This document shows positions 19,613-25,082 of a stretch of DNA of 44,605 nucleotides, piece after piece (position 1 is the stretch's first letter; every line of letters begins with the position of its first letter). The notes under the pieces are model-generated. The model saw only the letters and a list, made by a program, of their open reading frames with translations, made no database searches and was not told where the DNA came from. Made by a program: the position numbers and the translations under genes. Source of the stretch: Shigella phage DS8; sequence record MK759854; one strand, written 5' to 3'.

Positions 19613-20689
19613 CTATGGCATGTCAGGCCAATAAGAGTTGCTTTTAGATCTGTTCTCACTTGGTGCAAGTAATTGCAAGTTATGCCAGCAGTGAAGACCA
19701 CAAACCAATTTGCTATTTATTGGCACTATGTGATCAACCTGCATACCAAGAACGCCAGCCATCTCATAAACCTTTTCAATTAAAACCCTTTCATGTTCAA
19801 ACCATGATGGTATCGCCCGTCTTTTAAGATACTTATATTTACGCTGATGATATCTAACAACACCCTTGTTTTTCTGTCTCCACTGCTTTGACTTCTCGCT
19901 ATGCTTTTCCTTGTTTTTATCGTAATAACGTTTTGATTTTTCATTTATCTCTGCCTTTTTTAATTTATAAATATTTTTCCTGAACTCAGCCTGACATTTT
20001 TTGCAATCAGGACGTAGTCCATCAAGAGATGATTTATTTTTATTAAAGTTTTCTTCGTTCGCCTCAAGAACAGATTTACACTTAGAGCAAATCTTCAATC
20101 CATTACCAAGGTATCTTGCTCTCTTCCCTTTATTACCAGAGCACTTCTTGCATATGGAACTAAAGCCAAGTTTCATACTTTTATCTGCATAAAAGTATTC
20201 GCTTGTAGCTGGAAGAACGGACCTGCATTTTGAGCACATTTTCTCATTTAAAACTTCAGTTGAAATCCTGAGGTTGCATATCCTGTTGTCAGCGCGATTT
20301 TTGTTTATGTGCTCAATTTTCGCATTCCCAATATTATCTCCATTAACATAAATCCATGCGAGTCTTTGCGCCCAATATTGATTGCCATCTATGCTAATTC
20401 TCAGATAACCACTAACATCAAGACAGCCAGCAATATCTCCTACTTTAACACGAGAACCTGTCTTTATCTTACGCGTGAATATCCAAGTATCTGGGTTGTA
20501 ATCAAGAACCTCCCTTAGCCTCTCCTGTGAAATGTGTGACTTTCTTTTGGTTCCTGCATTTTTTAACCCTGCACTTTCCTGAGCAACATTTTGCTTTTGC
20601 AGTTCCGATAAACTCATTTCCGCAAACCTCGCACTTCTTGACGGTGATAGCCATTTCTTATCCTCTATTGTAACGATTAATTGTTTCAT
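19613..20689 (-). CDS. HNH endonuclease with two HNH-type motifs and internal CxxC repeats
   Basis: IEHINKNRADNRICNLR (HNH_3-like) and C-terminal DHIVPINS...HCWHNLQLLAPSENRSKSN; four K-x-C-x-K-C units between them; N-terminal ~60 aa and true start are uncertain. Confidence 0.65.
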   Translation of the reverse strand: MKQLIVTIEDKKWLSPSRSARFAEMSLSELQKQNVAQESAGLKNAGTKRKSHISQERLREVLDYNPDTWIFTRKIKTGSRVKVGDIAGCLDVSGYLRISIDGNQYWAQRLAWIYVNGDNIGNAKIEHINKNRADNRICNLRISTEVLNEKMCSKCRSVLPATSEYFYADKSMKLGFSSICKKCSGNKGKRARYLGNGLKICSKCKSVLEANEENFNKNKSSLDGLRPDCKKCQAEFRKNIYKLKKAEINEKSKRYYDKNKEKHSEKSKQWRQKNKGVVRYHQRKYKYLKRRAIPSWFEHERVLIEKVYEMAGVLGMQVDHIVPINSKLVCGLHCWHNLQLLAPSENRSKSNSYWPDMP

Positions 20690-20714: not shown

Positions 20715-20761
20715 ACGAGTAAATTACAATGAATCCACATCATCGTCAACAGGAAGATTTT

Positions 20762-21715
20762 ATGAGATACGACTGGAAGGACATTGAACCAAAAATGCTC
20801 GGCAACTGGCAGGCCGCCATCATGTCTATCGTCAATGTGGATAGCAGGGTTTTCAATGGCAAGCACCAGCCATGCCCAAGCTGTGGCGGAACAGACAGGT
20901 ATCGCTTTGATGACAACTTCGAAACAAAAGGAGACGGTGGAGCAATATGTAATCAGTGCGGTTCCGGCAGCGGCATGAACTGGCTGATGAAACTCTCCGG
21001 AATGAGCTTTCCTGAAGCGCTGGAGGCACTGGGTGGATTCCTGAATATGCACCCGCGCGAAAAACTGGAGGCAATCAGGAAGGAGCTACCGAAGATAAAT
21101 TACAACGATGACTTCATCACTGATCAGGAAGTCGCCGCAATAATGGCTAAAACGACGCGTGTCGCGATGAATGAATGGGCGTTGATAAATGGTATTGGTT
21201 GCGAAGTTAATGTCGCCAGAGGTAAATCTGGAGAGCTTATTGCGGTTGAGATGATGCGCGCTGACGCAATGAAGCCGTGCAACGTGGCATTCATTGGTGT
21301 GGATGGAGATTCATTCAGAACGTTTTTCCGCGCAGGATACAACAAAGACTCAGCCATCAATGGAAAACTCACGCGCGGCGCGATAAGCACAATCGGTGAA
21401 GATAACGGGAAGTTCATTTATCTGGTATCTGATTATGCCGACGCGTGGAAGTGCCATTACTTCACTGGTGCTCATGTATGGTGCTGCTGGTCGCCGGAAA
21501 ACATGTGGGAGGTTGTGCGCTCGGTTAGCGATGGGACGAAGGCGAGATTGCGCTGCATAGTTAATTATAAATTTGACGAACTTTGCGCAGCAGAAAATGC
21601 AGGGCTTCCGGTGATGCTACCCGATGATGCTGACACTATCAGGATGGCAAAGAGAATCAGAAGAAAGATTTATGACGCTGGCGAGTTGATAGAAAAAATG
21701 TCAGTAAGCAGATAA
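20762..21715 (+). CDS. putative DNA primase (zinc-ribbon N-terminus, TOPRIM-like core)
   Basis: CPSCGGTDRYRFDD...GAICNQCG zinc ribbon typical of primase N-termini; ATG 20762 has an AGGAAG RBS (longer ORF begins at 20729); only plus-strand gene within a minus-strand block. Confidence 0.5.
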   Translation: MRYDWKDIEPKMLGNWQAAIMSIVNVDSRVFNGKHQPCPSCGGTDRYRFDDNFETKGDGGAICNQCGSGSGMNWLMKLSGMSFPEALEALGGFLNMHPREKLEAIRKELPKINYNDDFITDQEVAAIMAKTTRVAMNEWALINGIGCEVNVARGKSGELIAVEMMRADAMKPCNVAFIGVDGDSFRTFFRAGYNKDSAINGKLTRGAISTIGEDNGKFIYLVSDYADAWKCHYFTGAHVWCCWSPENMWEVVRSVSDGTKARLRCIVNYKFDELCAAENAGLPVMLPDDADTIRMAKRIRRKIYDAGELIEKMSVSR

Positions 21716-21743: not shown

Positions 21744-22160
21744 TTATTCCTTGAACTCTGGCGCTTCAGTCCAGAAGGCTACATTTCGCAGAGACTTACC
21801 CGTGTGATTGCACCAGTATATTCCTGAGTCATCATACTTGGCAGTAACCTTGACGCGATCAGCATCAATAATAACAACCTCCTGTCCATATTTAGGGTCG
21901 AAAAGGCGCGCATCCTTCCAGTCAGCAATCTCATTAAGGGAAAGAAGAACATATCCGGGAAGATAAGCGCCGACATCAGCAATGTGAACTATGGTTCTCT
22001 CCGTTCTCTCTCCAGTGTAGTCTCCATTCCACTCATAAAGAATAATCGTGTCTCCAACCTTAAAATCACGATCGTTCTTTCTTAGTTCCGCCTTCTTGTG
22101 TCCGGTAACTACAGGCCAGAAGTGTTCAGGTAAGATTTTTAGTTCGTGTGTTTTGCTCAT
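21744..22160 (-). CDS. DUF3850/ASCH-like domain protein
   Basis: N-terminal HELKILPEHFWPVVTGHKKAELRKNDRDFKVGDTIIL matches the DUF3850 (ASCH-like) pattern as I recall it; ATG 22160 with GAGG RBS. Confidence 0.5.
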   Translation of the reverse strand: MSKTHELKILPEHFWPVVTGHKKAELRKNDRDFKVGDTIILYEWNGDYTGERTERTIVHIADVGAYLPGYVLLSLNEIADWKDARLFDPKYGQEVVIIDADRVKVTAKYDDSGIYWCNHTGKSLRNVAFWTEAPEFKE

Positions 22161-22242
22161 TTCAAACATCCTCATAATACCAATATGCAACGCGAATTAT
22201 TTCAACCAAACCATTCAACATCATACCAATCATCTTCTGGAC

Positions 22243-23796
22243 TCATTTCAACCTCGGATTTATGTGAACAGTATTTCCGATAAATACGCAGTAACCATCC
22301 TCTTCAAGTGATGGCAATACACTTGATCTTAGTCGGTCATAAATTTTAGGTATCCCTTTGAATGGCCTAACATTTTTAAGTGAATCATAAAGCCACTTCA
22401 CCGTTACGCTTGTTTTTCCTTTCTGAGCGGCAGAGCGTAGCTTTTCGGCAACAACATCAAACTCAGATCGTTCACCAGCATACCCATTTGATTCCACAGC
22501 GTCAGTGAACGTTTTTGTCAGTGCGTCATAAACGCTGATAGCGCGACTAATTTCATTTTCACCGATAATCTTTGAACGCTTTCCTCCATCGCACCAGTTT
22601 TCAGCAGCGTGAAATATTGCTGCCAGACGGATTATTTGCTTATCAGCTTTACCCATCGCGCCACGAAGAAGAACGTGGTCCCACTTACCGCCGGGAAGGA
22701 AGTTTTTCTCCCACTGATTTCGTAACAGGCCGATCATTCTTGCTGAGTCATTGTGAAGTGTCAGTTTTGTTTTTTCTGCTGACACAACGTTATGTATAAA
22801 TCTTGCATATTCCGACCTCAAGCTGTCTGGCATTGGCTTGCTTACAGGGCAATCATTAACCATGTCCCAGTGTTCGCGATAGCCAAGCATTGATTGCTCT
22901 CGCAACATCAGGAAACGTTCAGAAAGCCCGTTACCCCTGTCGCCAGCAGCAAGAATGGCATCAATACTTTCATCCTGAGCAATCACGCTTATGTTTCCAA
23001 GCACGTAACCAGATGAAACGCCACGACCAACACGAGCAGAACCAATGAATCCTCCATCCCAGCCCTTCAGGATGACTTCGGCGTTTGCCTTTCCACCTTC
23101 TTTTCCGTAAGAAAGGCCAAGGCAGGTGTTAAGAACGCTGGCCTCGTCACTTATCAGATTAAAAAAACCACCTTCATGAATGGCTTGATGCTGAACAGCC
23201 TCCGGCGTTGCGTCCGTCAGTGGATATGTGATCGTATAAAGCTCCTCCAGCTTCTCCTTTTCGCGAGCAATATCGTCTCCGATTAGTGCCTTTGCATTCT
23301 GGTTGCTGGCCTCCTTGTATGCCTTCATCAACTCTTCAATGCGAAGATTTATTTTTATGATCTGCTTTTCCATCTTTTTGGAAAGGTTGTCATACTCAAT
23401 CTTCACCGGATTCATGTGCATTGAGTTGATAGCGGTTTTCCCTGCTGATGGAGGCTGAGAAGTAACCACGTAAAGAGAAACTGGAAGTTCTGAATGGTAA
23501 TACTCAACGCTAAAGTTTCTCGTCATTGCGCTGGCAACGCACCCAAGTAAATGCATGAACGATGTATTTATTGGGAACTGAACGGCACGAGCTGCAGCGA
23601 TTGCATAACGAGACAGCAAATCAGTCCTGTGCTCACTGGTCAGTTCTGTTTCTGAGTACGTTACATCACGCTCCTTACCTTCCTTGATGTCCAGCCACAT
23701 ATTTGAGCTTGGTGTCATGCCATGATGGAAGGCGACGCGAGCCGGAGATACTTTTAACTCCCTTGCTTCGTTGAAGATGTCTTGAGCTGTAATCAT
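22243..23796 (-). CDS. P-loop NTPase, putative replication initiation/helicase-type protein
   Basis: 517 aa; Walker A-like QPPSAGKT and Walker B-like LISDEAS; GAGGT RBS; function inferred from its place in the replication module. Confidence 0.5.
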   Translation of the reverse strand: MITAQDIFNEARELKVSPARVAFHHGMTPSSNMWLDIKEGKERDVTYSETELTSEHRTDLLSRYAIAAARAVQFPINTSFMHLLGCVASAMTRNFSVEYYHSELPVSLYVVTSQPPSAGKTAINSMHMNPVKIEYDNLSKKMEKQIIKINLRIEELMKAYKEASNQNAKALIGDDIAREKEKLEELYTITYPLTDATPEAVQHQAIHEGGFFNLISDEASVLNTCLGLSYGKEGGKANAEVILKGWDGGFIGSARVGRGVSSGYVLGNISVIAQDESIDAILAAGDRGNGLSERFLMLREQSMLGYREHWDMVNDCPVSKPMPDSLRSEYARFIHNVVSAEKTKLTLHNDSARMIGLLRNQWEKNFLPGGKWDHVLLRGAMGKADKQIIRLAAIFHAAENWCDGGKRSKIIGENEISRAISVYDALTKTFTDAVESNGYAGERSEFDVVAEKLRSAAQKGKTSVTVKWLYDSLKNVRPFKGIPKIYDRLRSSVLPSLEEDGYCVFIGNTVHINPRLK

Positions 23797-24069
23797 TTAT
23801 ACCTCGTACTCTGTTTCAAATTTCTCATGAGGATTCTCTGATAACCATTCCTTGGCTCTCAAAACTGCAGCGTTTGCTTCCTCTGCCGTTTCAAACATAC
23901 CAAGCTCATATCTTTTCTTGAGTACCATCACTCTCGCTCTGAATTTTTTCGATGCCTTGTGGTAATCAACACCGTAGTATCCAGTGGTTGATTTTGATGA
24001 TGCAACCCACCCTGCACCACGACCATGTTTGTTTAATTTGCGCTTTAATAATACACCGTGATTGCTCAT
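23797..24069 (-). CDS. AP2-domain DNA-binding protein
   Basis: 90 aa; YYGVDYHKASKKFRARVMVLKKRYELGMFETAEEA fits an AP2 domain; GGGGAG RBS; first gene of the leftward operon next to the control region. Confidence 0.5.
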   Translation of the reverse strand: MSNHGVLLKRKLNKHGRGAGWVASSKSTTGYYGVDYHKASKKFRARVMVLKKRYELGMFETAEEANAAVLRAKEWLSENPHEKFETEYEV

Positions 24070-24165
24070 TTCCGCTCCCCAATCAACTATTTCCCCAAAA
24101 TACTACCACCTACTCCCCAGCATTGCAACACAACAAAAGCGTCAAAAGGGGTAAATTGGGTTAAC

Positions 24166-24188
24166 GTGGGGCAACCAACCTGCCCCAC
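24166..24188. promoter_or_regulatory. 23-bp palindrome GTGGGGCA-N7-TGCCCCAC (candidate operator/origin element)
   Basis: Perfect 8-bp inverted arms read directly. Confidence 0.5.
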
Positions 24189-24396
24189 GAAGTTTTACTC
24201 TAAGTATATGTAATATAATATAATTATTATTATTTGGGTTAATGGGTAATATTATTATTCATATTATAGATAAAAATTAACATAATATTAACAAATGGAT
24301 TATTTGAATATGTTTATAAGGGGATGGGTATGAAATCTGCCCCTTTTTACCCACGAAAAATAAAAACATTCAAATCAATGATTTACGATGAAAAGC

Positions 24397-24419
24397 GTGG
24401 GGCAACCGACCTGCCCCAC
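24397..24419. promoter_or_regulatory. second copy of GTGGGGCA-N7-TGCCCCAC, followed by extra CCCCACG half-sites
   Basis: Identical arms; additional ACCTGCCCCACG (24421-24432) and TTTACCCCACG (24441-24451). Confidence 0.5.
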
Positions 24420-24474
24420 GACCTGCCCCACGGGCAAAAATTTACCCCACGAGCACGTTTTTAACGCATTACTG

Positions 24475-24503
24475 TTGACGTAGAATCATCGTTGATGTAG
24501 ATT
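24475..24503 (+). promoter_or_regulatory. putative sigma70-type early rightward promoter (TTGACG-N17-TAGATT) built on two motif copies
   Basis: TTGACG 24475-24480, 17-nt spacer, TAGATT 24498-24503; RBS GAGGGTGAAGAG and ATG 24534 downstream. Confidence 0.4.
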
Positions 24504-24533
24504 GAACTCATCGAAACAAACGAGGGTGAAGAG

Positions 24534-24719
24534 ATGAAAGAAGAAAGCACGCACAACATCGACCAGATGAAGTTATTCAGCGATATATGCATGGCATTGT
24601 CACAACAGGTTACAAGCCTGCCTGCTGATATGCGCTCAAATGCAATCATTGATGCGGCAAACATGATTTGCGAGGCATATGCGATGACTGAAAATGAATA
24701 TAAGGCTTCGAAGAAATGA
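24534..24719 (+). CDS. hypothetical early protein
   Basis: 61-aa ORF with strong RBS; first rightward early gene. Confidence 0.4.
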   Translation: MKEESTHNIDQMKLFSDICMALSQQVTSLPADMRSNAIIDAANMICEAYAMTENEYKASKK

Positions 24720-24899
24720 CAGGCGCAACATTAGAACTTATCTCCAGTCTGGTTATCGTGGCATTCATCATTATCGCAGTGGCAGTTTCTAAATCAGGGT
24801 ATAAGGAGTAACAAAATGAGAAACTTGCATAACGAACACATCATGCAGTGGTATCGTTGTCGCATTAAGGCAATCATTAACTCTTGTGAGGTTTAACAA

Positions 24900-25082
24900 A
24901 TGGCAAAGACCATCTATCGCCGCGAGAAGCTGGAGTCGGAACTCGGTCGCGTTGGCGCGCAGAACTTTATGAGCAAGCAGGCACGCAATGCAATGGAATC
25001 TATCCGCGTAAATCGCGTTGTGCGCGTGTTTAATGGTGAAGGTAAGCGTAGAGTAATGGATGAGCTGATTATCGTATTCTGA
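24900..25082 (+). CDS. hypothetical early protein
   Basis: 60-aa ORF; GAGG RBS 8 nt upstream. Confidence 0.35.
   Translation: MAKTIYRREKLESELGRVGAQNFMSKQARNAMESIRVNRVVRVFNGEGKRRVMDELIIVF

Follow-up and report, generated by a model that had tools for sequence, protein, structure and literature searches.

Mirror-image repeat arrays around an AT-rich core form a probable replication origin, with a putative MCM-like initiator helicase, in Shigella phage DS8

Shigella phage DS8 (sequence record MK759854; 44,605 nucleotides (nt), analysed as one 44.6-kb stretch that we call the window) is by sequence comparison a Vi II-E1/Akira-like siphophage, whose nearest kin are Salmonella phages Vi II-E1, IME207 and Akira and Escherichia phages Bas78/79 and C1. 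Between a leftward operon (an AP2-like gene at 23797-24069 and a helicase gene at 22243-23796) and rightward small early genes that begin at 24534 lies a control region in which short repeats with a CCCCA core flank an AT-rich core. An earlier note, made from the letters of the sequence, had placed this region between a divergent replication operon and an early operon, a setting borne out by the gene map, and had proposed either a replication origin or a major operator region. Here we argue that 24148-24451 is probably a bidirectional origin of the iteron type, at which the MCM-like helicase encoded by the phage itself would act through a winged helix, a reading built on sequence comparison, a structural model and analogy. 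To our knowledge, the siphophages of Salmonella, Escherichia and Klebsiella that make up this widespread group have so far no mapped origin. The elements of the region on which the argument turns are these:

24165-24189, no strand: left iteron pair, CGTGGGGCAACCAACCTGCCCCACG; two 9-mer sites (24165-24173 and 24181-24189) face to face, abutting the AT-rich core
24190-24395, no strand: AT-rich core, 77.7% A+T overall, with 83.9% in 24199-24322; presumed DNA-unwinding region
24396-24420, no strand: right iteron pair, CGTGGGGCAACCGACCTGCCCCACG, which is CGTGGGGCA-N7-TGCCCCACG; 9-mers at 24396-24404 and 24412-24420
24424-24451, plus strand: two further direct sites, TGCCCCACG and TACCCCACG, oriented as the inner arm of the right palindrome; positions kept in 8/8 phages
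24148-24164, no strand: degenerate outer left sites, GGGGTAAATT (24148-24157) and GGGTTAA (24158-24164), with 10-nt spacing
24338-24353, no strand: inner right weak sites, TGCCCC (24338-24343) and TACCCACG (24346-24353)

The two 23-base-pair (bp) palindromes that the earlier note had described, GTGGGGCA-N7-TGCCCCAC, are present base for base at 24166-24188 and 24397-24419. Each gains one C/G pair and so becomes a 25-bp palindrome, CGTGGGGCA-N7-TGCCCCACG, and the left and right copies differ by a single loop base. Allowing up to three mismatches, the 25-bp pattern was found twice against 0.01 expected, and in 0/100 shuffles. The additional CCCCACG half-sites claimed to the right of the second palindrome are also there (TGCCCCACG at 24424-24432; TACCCCACG at 24443-24451), as is the AT-rich segment: 24195-24340 has 80.1% A+T as compared to 53.5% for the window, whose most AT-rich 146-bp stretch starts at 24193 (81.5%; the runner-up has 73.3%). 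All six window copies of CCCCACG fall within 24165-24451 (287 bp), and six of the seven copies of CCCCAC in the genome lie in 24070-24470, where uniform placement would give 0.06. The element GGGGTAAATT at 24148-24157 is an exact inverted match to AATTTACCCC at 24439-24448; as this element is the outermost on the left, the right array is organised as the reverse complement of the left one. At the place of the degenerate outer left sites, Bas78, C1 and 6947 carry full ACGTGGGTA and ACGTGGGGCA sites, and at the place of the inner right weak sites TGCCCCACT and TTCCCCAAA are found in C1, 6947, EI_sp1 and VLCpiS13a.

An indication of function came from a comparison across relatives. We anchored 17 loci on a shared TTGACGTAGA and compared the 450-660 bp upstream; across the 167 phage records that match this region, the DNA upstream of the shared promoter segment sorts into distinct types, each with its own large replication gene to the left:

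517-amino-acid DUF3987 helicase (window, Vi II-E1, Bas78, C1, 6947, EI_sp1, MK54, VLCpiS13a): 9-mers with a CCCCA(C)(G) core
495-amino-acid helicase of another family (Skate, seszw, KFS-SE2, 64795_sal3, Segz_1): (C)GGGATAA / GGATAA in direct orientation, left and right of an AT-rich core
777-amino-acid primase-helicase: GGCAWWTAG in YX3973 and Sa179lw; GGGAA-type repeats in gmqsjt-1 and Sf11
525-amino-acid protein (ASO78B): TTTACCGG

The repeats switch together with the gene, four gene types at the locus going with four repeat types. The repeat sequence is thus specific to the lineage of the putative initiator and changes when the initiator is exchanged, a behaviour looked for in an iteron-type origin of a self-loading helicase-initiator. 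At least four unrelated replication modules, each with its own repeats, stand upstream of the same early promoter, and this therefore suggests that origin-initiator cassettes have been exchanged as units.

Within the 517-residue type, eight phages with 86-99.8% helicase identity could be aligned, offsets being counted from the CTAAGT anchor at the start of the conserved AT core. The 9-mers with a CCCCA core occupy fixed left offsets (-43, -32 and -16, the palindrome sites at -32 and -16 in 8/8) and fixed right offsets (+190/200, +206/216, +218/228 and +237/248), with conserved orientations. At its first two bases the 9-mer varies (TG, TT, TA, CG), without matching changes between the palindrome arms. 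Fixed positions combined with this uncompensated variation therefore indicate selection on unit sites, not on hairpin pairing. This bears directly on whether the palindromes act as hairpins, be it as intrinsic terminators or insulators that shield the core from outside transcription, or as cruciforms or single-strand hairpins for priming. Both palindromes were indeed flagged as terminator-like in a scan, with a short T run pointing into the core, and their single strands fold at -11.3 kcal/mol (left) and -11.1 kcal/mol (right), with a z-score of about -4.4. The T runs, however, are just four T long, no Rfam family matched the region, the inner two stem positions vary without compensation, no flanking gene points so that its transcripts would enter the core, and the palindromes do not stand at the end of any transcription unit. 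Moreover, the same 9-mer occurs unpaired and direct at 24424-24432 and 24443-24451, three direct copies are present in the Bas78-type left array, and Skate, with its other helicase, has direct repeats only and lacks a palindrome. We therefore regard a hairpin function as very unlikely.

The CCCCA repeats accompany helicase homologues down to 42% identity, despite different gene orders (the 517-residue helicase is matched by 1161 phage records overall). In a metagenomic contig with a 62% identical helicase, 13 of 15 CCCCA copies fall in the equivalent intergenic region, within one 400-bp window; in Pectobacterium phage Ymer (49% identity), seven of ten local copies fall in one 400-bp window, and the array, of the form '> < < <', stops ~20 nt upstream of a promoter match, TTGACT-17-TAGATT. 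In two contigs with 42% identical helicases (L029 and L030), the small upstream gene is absent and six of seven copies lie within a 535-bp region directly downstream of the helicase gene, again in a single 400-bp window. At both the 62% and the 42% loci, this 400-bp stretch also includes the most AT-rich 100 bp of the locus.

Two proteins of the replication module enter the proposed reading:

22243-23796, minus strand: 517-amino-acid DUF3987 helicase (superfamily SF6, MCM-like) with a C-terminal winged helix at about residues 442-512; proposed iteron-binding initiator-helicase
20729-21715, plus strand: 328-amino-acid DnaG/T7-type primase with a zinc ribbon (Pfam PF08273, phrog_510)

The 517-residue protein matches Pfam DUF3987 (PF13148) at 120.5 bits, above the gathering score, and has a Walker A motif and a predicted MCM-like AAA+ fold. 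Because a search of PDB chains with its sequence matched nothing, a comparison of folds was needed. MCM subunits were the top structural matches of the predicted structure, a confident model, in which residues 442-512 follow the helix-strand-helix-helix-strand-strand order of a winged helix; this C-terminal domain gave many winged-helix matches of 60-80 residues, including the ORC2 winged-helix domain, Stn1, ScpA and Fur/PerR. The region thus has what an origin of a self-loading helicase-initiator would be expected to have beside it, a gene for a replicative AAA+ helicase with a predicted C-terminal winged-helix domain. One DUF3987 protein is an oligomeric, ATP-dependent helicase that binds its primase (PMC11724360), and the DnaG/T7-type primase is the likely partner of the 517-residue helicase here. 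The gene for this primase lies on the strand opposite to that of its neighbours.

The closest parallel that we found is with the staphylococcal pathogenicity islands (SaPIs). Their Rep proteins are initiators that load themselves as helicases and read penta- or hexanucleotide iterons with a winged helix at the C-terminus (PMC9371898). SaPI origins have six to twelve iterons and a central AT-rich region, with at least two iterons per side in opposite directions, and each side is believed to load one of two hexamers (PMC9371898). The window likewise has at least two sites per side (two left, four right) in opposite orientations around a core of 78-84% A+T. It differs from SaPIs in its sites, which are nine bases long with a CCCCA core and in two places pair up as a 25-bp palindrome, and in that its AT-rich core is longer (~200 bp) and conserved in sequence; the window is also that of a virulent enterobacterial siphophage rather than a satellite, and helicase binding, known for the SaPI Rep proteins, is here something that we infer.

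On this basis, we propose the following mechanism. The 9-mers with a CCCCA(C)(G) core would form two mirror-image arrays, two weak outer sites and a palindrome on the left, a palindrome and two direct sites on the right, around the sequence-conserved core of ~200 bp. The 517-residue helicase, encoded one gene leftward, would recognise these sites via its C-terminal winged helix, assemble on both sides of the core, melt the AT-rich DNA and load itself; the separate DnaG-type primase would then start bidirectional synthesis. Divergent promoters on either side would probably aid opening via the negative supercoils between them, and array-bound helicase may in turn feed back on these promoters. 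Of the two roles proposed in the earlier note, the origin is thus the one supported, by the covariation of repeats with replication modules, the linkage of repeats to helicase homologues, the predicted helicase fold, the SaPI-like layout and the retention of the analogous region in genome-reduced mutants of a related phage.

These mutants come from a CRISPR-based genome reduction of the Skatevirus seszw, for which dozens of viable mutants were deposited (PMC9825161). We took essentiality from the deposited mutant genomes, using a spread sample of matches. The analogous 521-bp region is wholly retained in every seszw record listed in that sample, down to a genome of 35,993 of ~45,900 bp. In mutant 300S, early genes 53-59 are gone, as is the small gene lying upstream of the helicase; the helicase and the region are retained, the latter with six point changes or 1-nt indels only. 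Such a pattern agrees with a cis-acting DNA element that the phage cannot lose, beside a small gene that it can. A 'putative membrane protein' is annotated in the AT-rich core of Skate and seszw (for seszw at 2702-2941 of locus L022 and 1663-1893 of locus L023); its reading frame is disturbed by the 1-nt indels of 300S, and it is probably not a gene.

The core and its right border carry further predicted signals:

24475-24503, plus strand: early rightward promoter, TTGACG-17-TAGATT, beginning 23 nt past the last site
24263-24291, minus strand: candidate leftward promoter in the core, TTAATA-17-TATAAT
24373-24385, plus strand: exact match (AATCAATGATTTA) to the integration host factor (IHF) consensus WATCAANNNNTTR, between core and right array; relevance uncertain

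Positions 24199-24325 are near-invariant in the eight-phage alignment, which includes two Klebsiella phages with divergent flanks, so that the core is conserved in sequence, beyond mere AT-richness. Within 24199-24329 the alignment also shows conserved G runs, GGGTTAATGGGTAAT (24234-24250) and AAGGGGATGGG (24319-24329), that resemble degenerate sites. The first 13 bases of the core, ACTAAGTATATGTA, are common even to Skate-type phages, which have another helicase and a similarly annotated DnaG-type primase gene; this sequence might be a primase or host-factor signal. The IHF match is retained in Bas78 and Vi II-E1, and the segment that holds it is replaced in C1, 6947 and EI_sp1. No DnaA box was found, the best matches carrying two mismatches, GATC is absent from the region, and an Rfam scan of 23700-24900 with E values up to 1 returned a chance snoRNA match only (17 bits, as compared to a gathering score of 47).

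The early rightward promoter anticipated in the earlier note corresponds to the sigma-70-type match at 24475-24503, a segment that most of the 167 records have kept irrespective of the replication module upstream of it. This promoter holds an internal direct repeat, TTGACGTAGA / TTGATGTAGA, 17 nt apart, its -35 and -10 regions being copies of one 10-mer. The candidate leftward promoter has 10/12 consensus matches, and both of its hexamers are kept in the eight-phage alignment, promoter-like matches in AT-rich DNA being weak evidence. An open reading frame (ORF) of 46 amino acids at 24324-24464, equipped with a plausible ribosome-binding site, crosses the right array, and some relatives have it entered as a hypothetical protein; we rejected it as a gene, since MK54 lacks the ATG and VLCpiS13a has a 12-codon ORF only.

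Could the repeats instead be operators of a transcription switch only, through which a phage protein (the helicase or another early product) acts on the divergent promoters, with replication starting elsewhere or without a fixed origin? The region does lie between divergent operons, the last right-hand site and the -35 element of the widely conserved rightward promoter are 23 nt apart, Ymer shows the same order of array and promoter, and the candidate leftward promoter within the AT core would put the left array in a transcribed leader. Three considerations speak against operators alone: firstly, the -35 and -10 elements of the rightward promoter are free of overlap with the sites, and this promoter is independent of one particular binder, because it is conserved in phages with wholly different upstream repeats; secondly, the repeats track the helicase and not any small regulator-like gene; thirdly, mirror-oriented arrays around an AT-rich core of ~200 bp are origin anatomy and would be untypical for an operator. 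In keeping with this, the arrangement expected of a repressor and its operator was not found at the rightward promoter: the sites stop short of the rightward -35 element, and the adjacent small gene is not conserved with them. A switch without an origin is thus unlikely in our judgement, and operator and origin roles may coexist.

Several observations weigh against the interpretation of the region as an origin opened by its own helicase. Its anatomy, statistical significance, conservation, the covariation of repeats with genes and the predicted helicase fold are direct results of this study; helicase binding, melting and initiation are drawn from anatomy, covariation, protein fold and analogy. 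The closeness of the right array to a strong conserved promoter, in the window as in Ymer, would also suit a transcription-factor site, and the centres of the palindrome half-sites are ~15 bp apart, unlike the spacing for a simple dimer on one helix face. A SaPI origin lies directly downstream of rep, whereas in DS8 the region precedes the operon and the AP2 gene stands between it and the helicase gene; it is in the L029 and L030 contigs, with their 42% identical helicases, that the SaPI-like position directly downstream of the helicase gene is seen. T1-like and Webervirus phages, with a 34-39% identical helicase homologue, have no CCCCA cluster within 2.5 kb of the gene. At the T1 and Webervirus (NJR15) loci the helicase gene sits within an operon; if the origins of these phages are iteron-based, they use another motif or another place. 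The 777-residue primase-helicases are 93-97% identical and yet go with different repeats, so that specificity would need to lie in a few C-terminal residues or in another protein. Their differences are concentrated in the last ~55 residues, and each C-terminal variant goes with one of the two repeat families, in a small sample of four phages. As for seszw, its helicase family and repeats are different, and retention attests importance rather than origin function; the mutants thus back the general reading of the locus more than that of DS8 in particular. Finally, the cumulative GC skew of the genome, a check put forward in the earlier note, has its global minimum at 24134, as would fit an origin; this minimum is inseparable from the switch in gene orientation there and, because the two coincide, is not independent evidence.

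The earlier note had named two candidate binders, the adjacent AP2-domain protein and the P-loop ATPase. The latter, which is the DUF3987 helicase, is the one favoured by our data; the former is disfavoured, since there are relatives that have the repeats and lack it. The AP2 gene and its leader are placed as follows:

23797-24069, minus strand: 90-amino-acid AP2-like DNA-binding protein (Pfam AP2 at 20.4 bits, below the cut-off of 33.3)
24076-24119, plus strand: three CCCCA motifs, TCCCCAATC, TCCCCAAAA and CTCCCCAGC, in the AP2-gene leader and part of the AP2 cassette

GC-rich DNA is a target of AP2 domains, and a cyanobacterial HNH-AP2 protein reportedly binds poly(dG)/poly(dC), which is a lead rather than a test. 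That the AP2 protein binds the palindromes, as an origin-binding or autoregulatory protein, would agree with the AP2 gene being nearest to the region and with the three CCCCA motifs of its leader. Among the aligned phages these motifs occur in the window and Vi II-E1 only. Among the compared relatives, however, the protein is confined to the window, Vi II-E1, Akira and IME207, the gene being flagged as a pseudogene in the Vi II-E1 record. Unrelated small proteins of 47-79 amino acids replace it, with the CCCCA sites retained in place, both in Bas78, C1, 6947 and EI_sp1 (helicase 99.2-99.8% identical) and in the Klebsiella phages MK54 and VLCpiS13a (86-87%), and the small gene at the equivalent position is dispensable in seszw. 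The AP2-like protein also matches the DNA-binding parts of HNH homing-endonuclease PHROGs, a resemblance which suggests a mobile-element remnant. We accordingly give very little credence to the AP2 protein as the binder, and its gene probably stands outside the origin mechanism. The similarity of Bas78-type phages to the window starts at ~24165, the junction of the AP2 cassette; therefore, the AP2 gene with its 95-bp leader (23797-24164) appears to be a cassette that replaced the outer part of the left array. In the Bas78-type phages an unrelated gene of 72-79 amino acids stands at the AP2 position, preceded by two copies of ATTGAATCAT. We also considered that the AP2 protein might be a copy of the DNA-binding domain of the phage's 358-residue HNH endonuclease, and rejected this as the two have no similarity (E 0.41).

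Lastly, several GenBank records open in or near the region, as they might if it were a packaging signal (pac or cos) or the physical ends of the genome. Akira (MK599416), ZCKp20p (OP373729) and ZC2 (OP481875) were opened inside the AT core, at window-equivalent positions 24290 (where the Akira record ends), 24240 (ZCKp20p start) and 24244 (ZC2 start), and INT55 and INT59 close by. These break points differ between phages, however, and the openings, in a core of 84% A+T, are probably arbitrary, assembly or coverage breaks. The related phage STGO-35-1 is reported to use headful packaging, with terminal redundancy and partial circular permutation as determined by PhageTerm (PMC8954984). The terminase genes, moreover, lie ~2.3-2.8 kb rightward, and the repeats track the replication gene, not the terminase. 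A role in packaging is, in our view, scarcely credible.

If the region is an origin, it resembles the lambda ori and the origins of iteron plasmids in having initiator-specific repeats beside an AT-rich unwinding region, in swapping specificity between related phages and in that nearby transcription probably helps. It is not an origin of the lambda type: the lambda ori is located within the O gene, and host DnaB is brought to it by the P protein, whereas the window repeats are intergenic and border the AT core left and right, with helicase and primase both supplied by the phage. In satellite phage P4, the C-terminal DNA-binding domain of the alpha helicase recognises short repeats in both orientations (ori/crr). 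P4 alpha, however, combines primase and SF3 helicase in one protein and depends on crr as a second, distant site; in the window, the primase is separate, the helicase belongs to SF6 and all copies of CCCCAC but one are in a single region. A further class for comparison is that of origins with two head-to-head hexameric helicases, as for simian virus 40 (SV40) large T antigen, papillomavirus E1 and archaeal and eukaryotic MCM; the window helicase has no sequence relationship to the SF3 initiators large T antigen and E1, and the formation of a double hexamer at this origin is speculation. Cellular MCM needs ORC/Cdc6 loaders and reads no DNA sequence itself.

More tentatively, the Vi II-E1, Akira, Skate and Sf11 lineages may carry an exchangeable cassette of origin and initiator, of which at least four unrelated families exist, the one in the window employing a sequence-reading MCM-like helicase that loads as two rings. 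If this is true, these phages would provide a bacterial-virus model of sequence-directed MCM loading without ORC/Cdc6-type loaders, and a simple bacterial system in which to ask how a winged-helix MCM-type helicase finds and opens DNA. A defined origin with its cognate helicase would also explain the exchange of replication modules among these phages, many of which have been proposed for biocontrol and typing, and would mark a cis-acting region to keep in genome reduction or engineering. The repeats themselves were already known from a database record, and the design of iterons around an AT-rich core beside a self-loading helicase is known from SaPIs; what stands out more is that cassettes of origin and initiator may be exchanged at a single locus, and that an MCM-like helicase in a phage easy to work with would itself read sequence.

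A full-text literature search with the repeat sequence returned unrelated primer sequences only. The GenBank record of Vi II-E1 (AM491472, 2008) lists two repeat_regions, each a 'repeat of sequence GTGGGGCAACCAACCTGCCCCACGA', at the same locus and with a spacing of 231 bp; these are the homologous feature of the window palindromes, and both palindromes are likewise entered as repeat_region in the Akira record. The two records assign no function to the repeats; we read the corresponding region of the window as a probable origin. Besides the helicase and primase genes, the replication module of the window holds the gene for the 358-residue HNH homing-endonuclease-like protein (19613-20689) and a DUF3850/ASCH (RNA-binding-like) gene (21744-22190).

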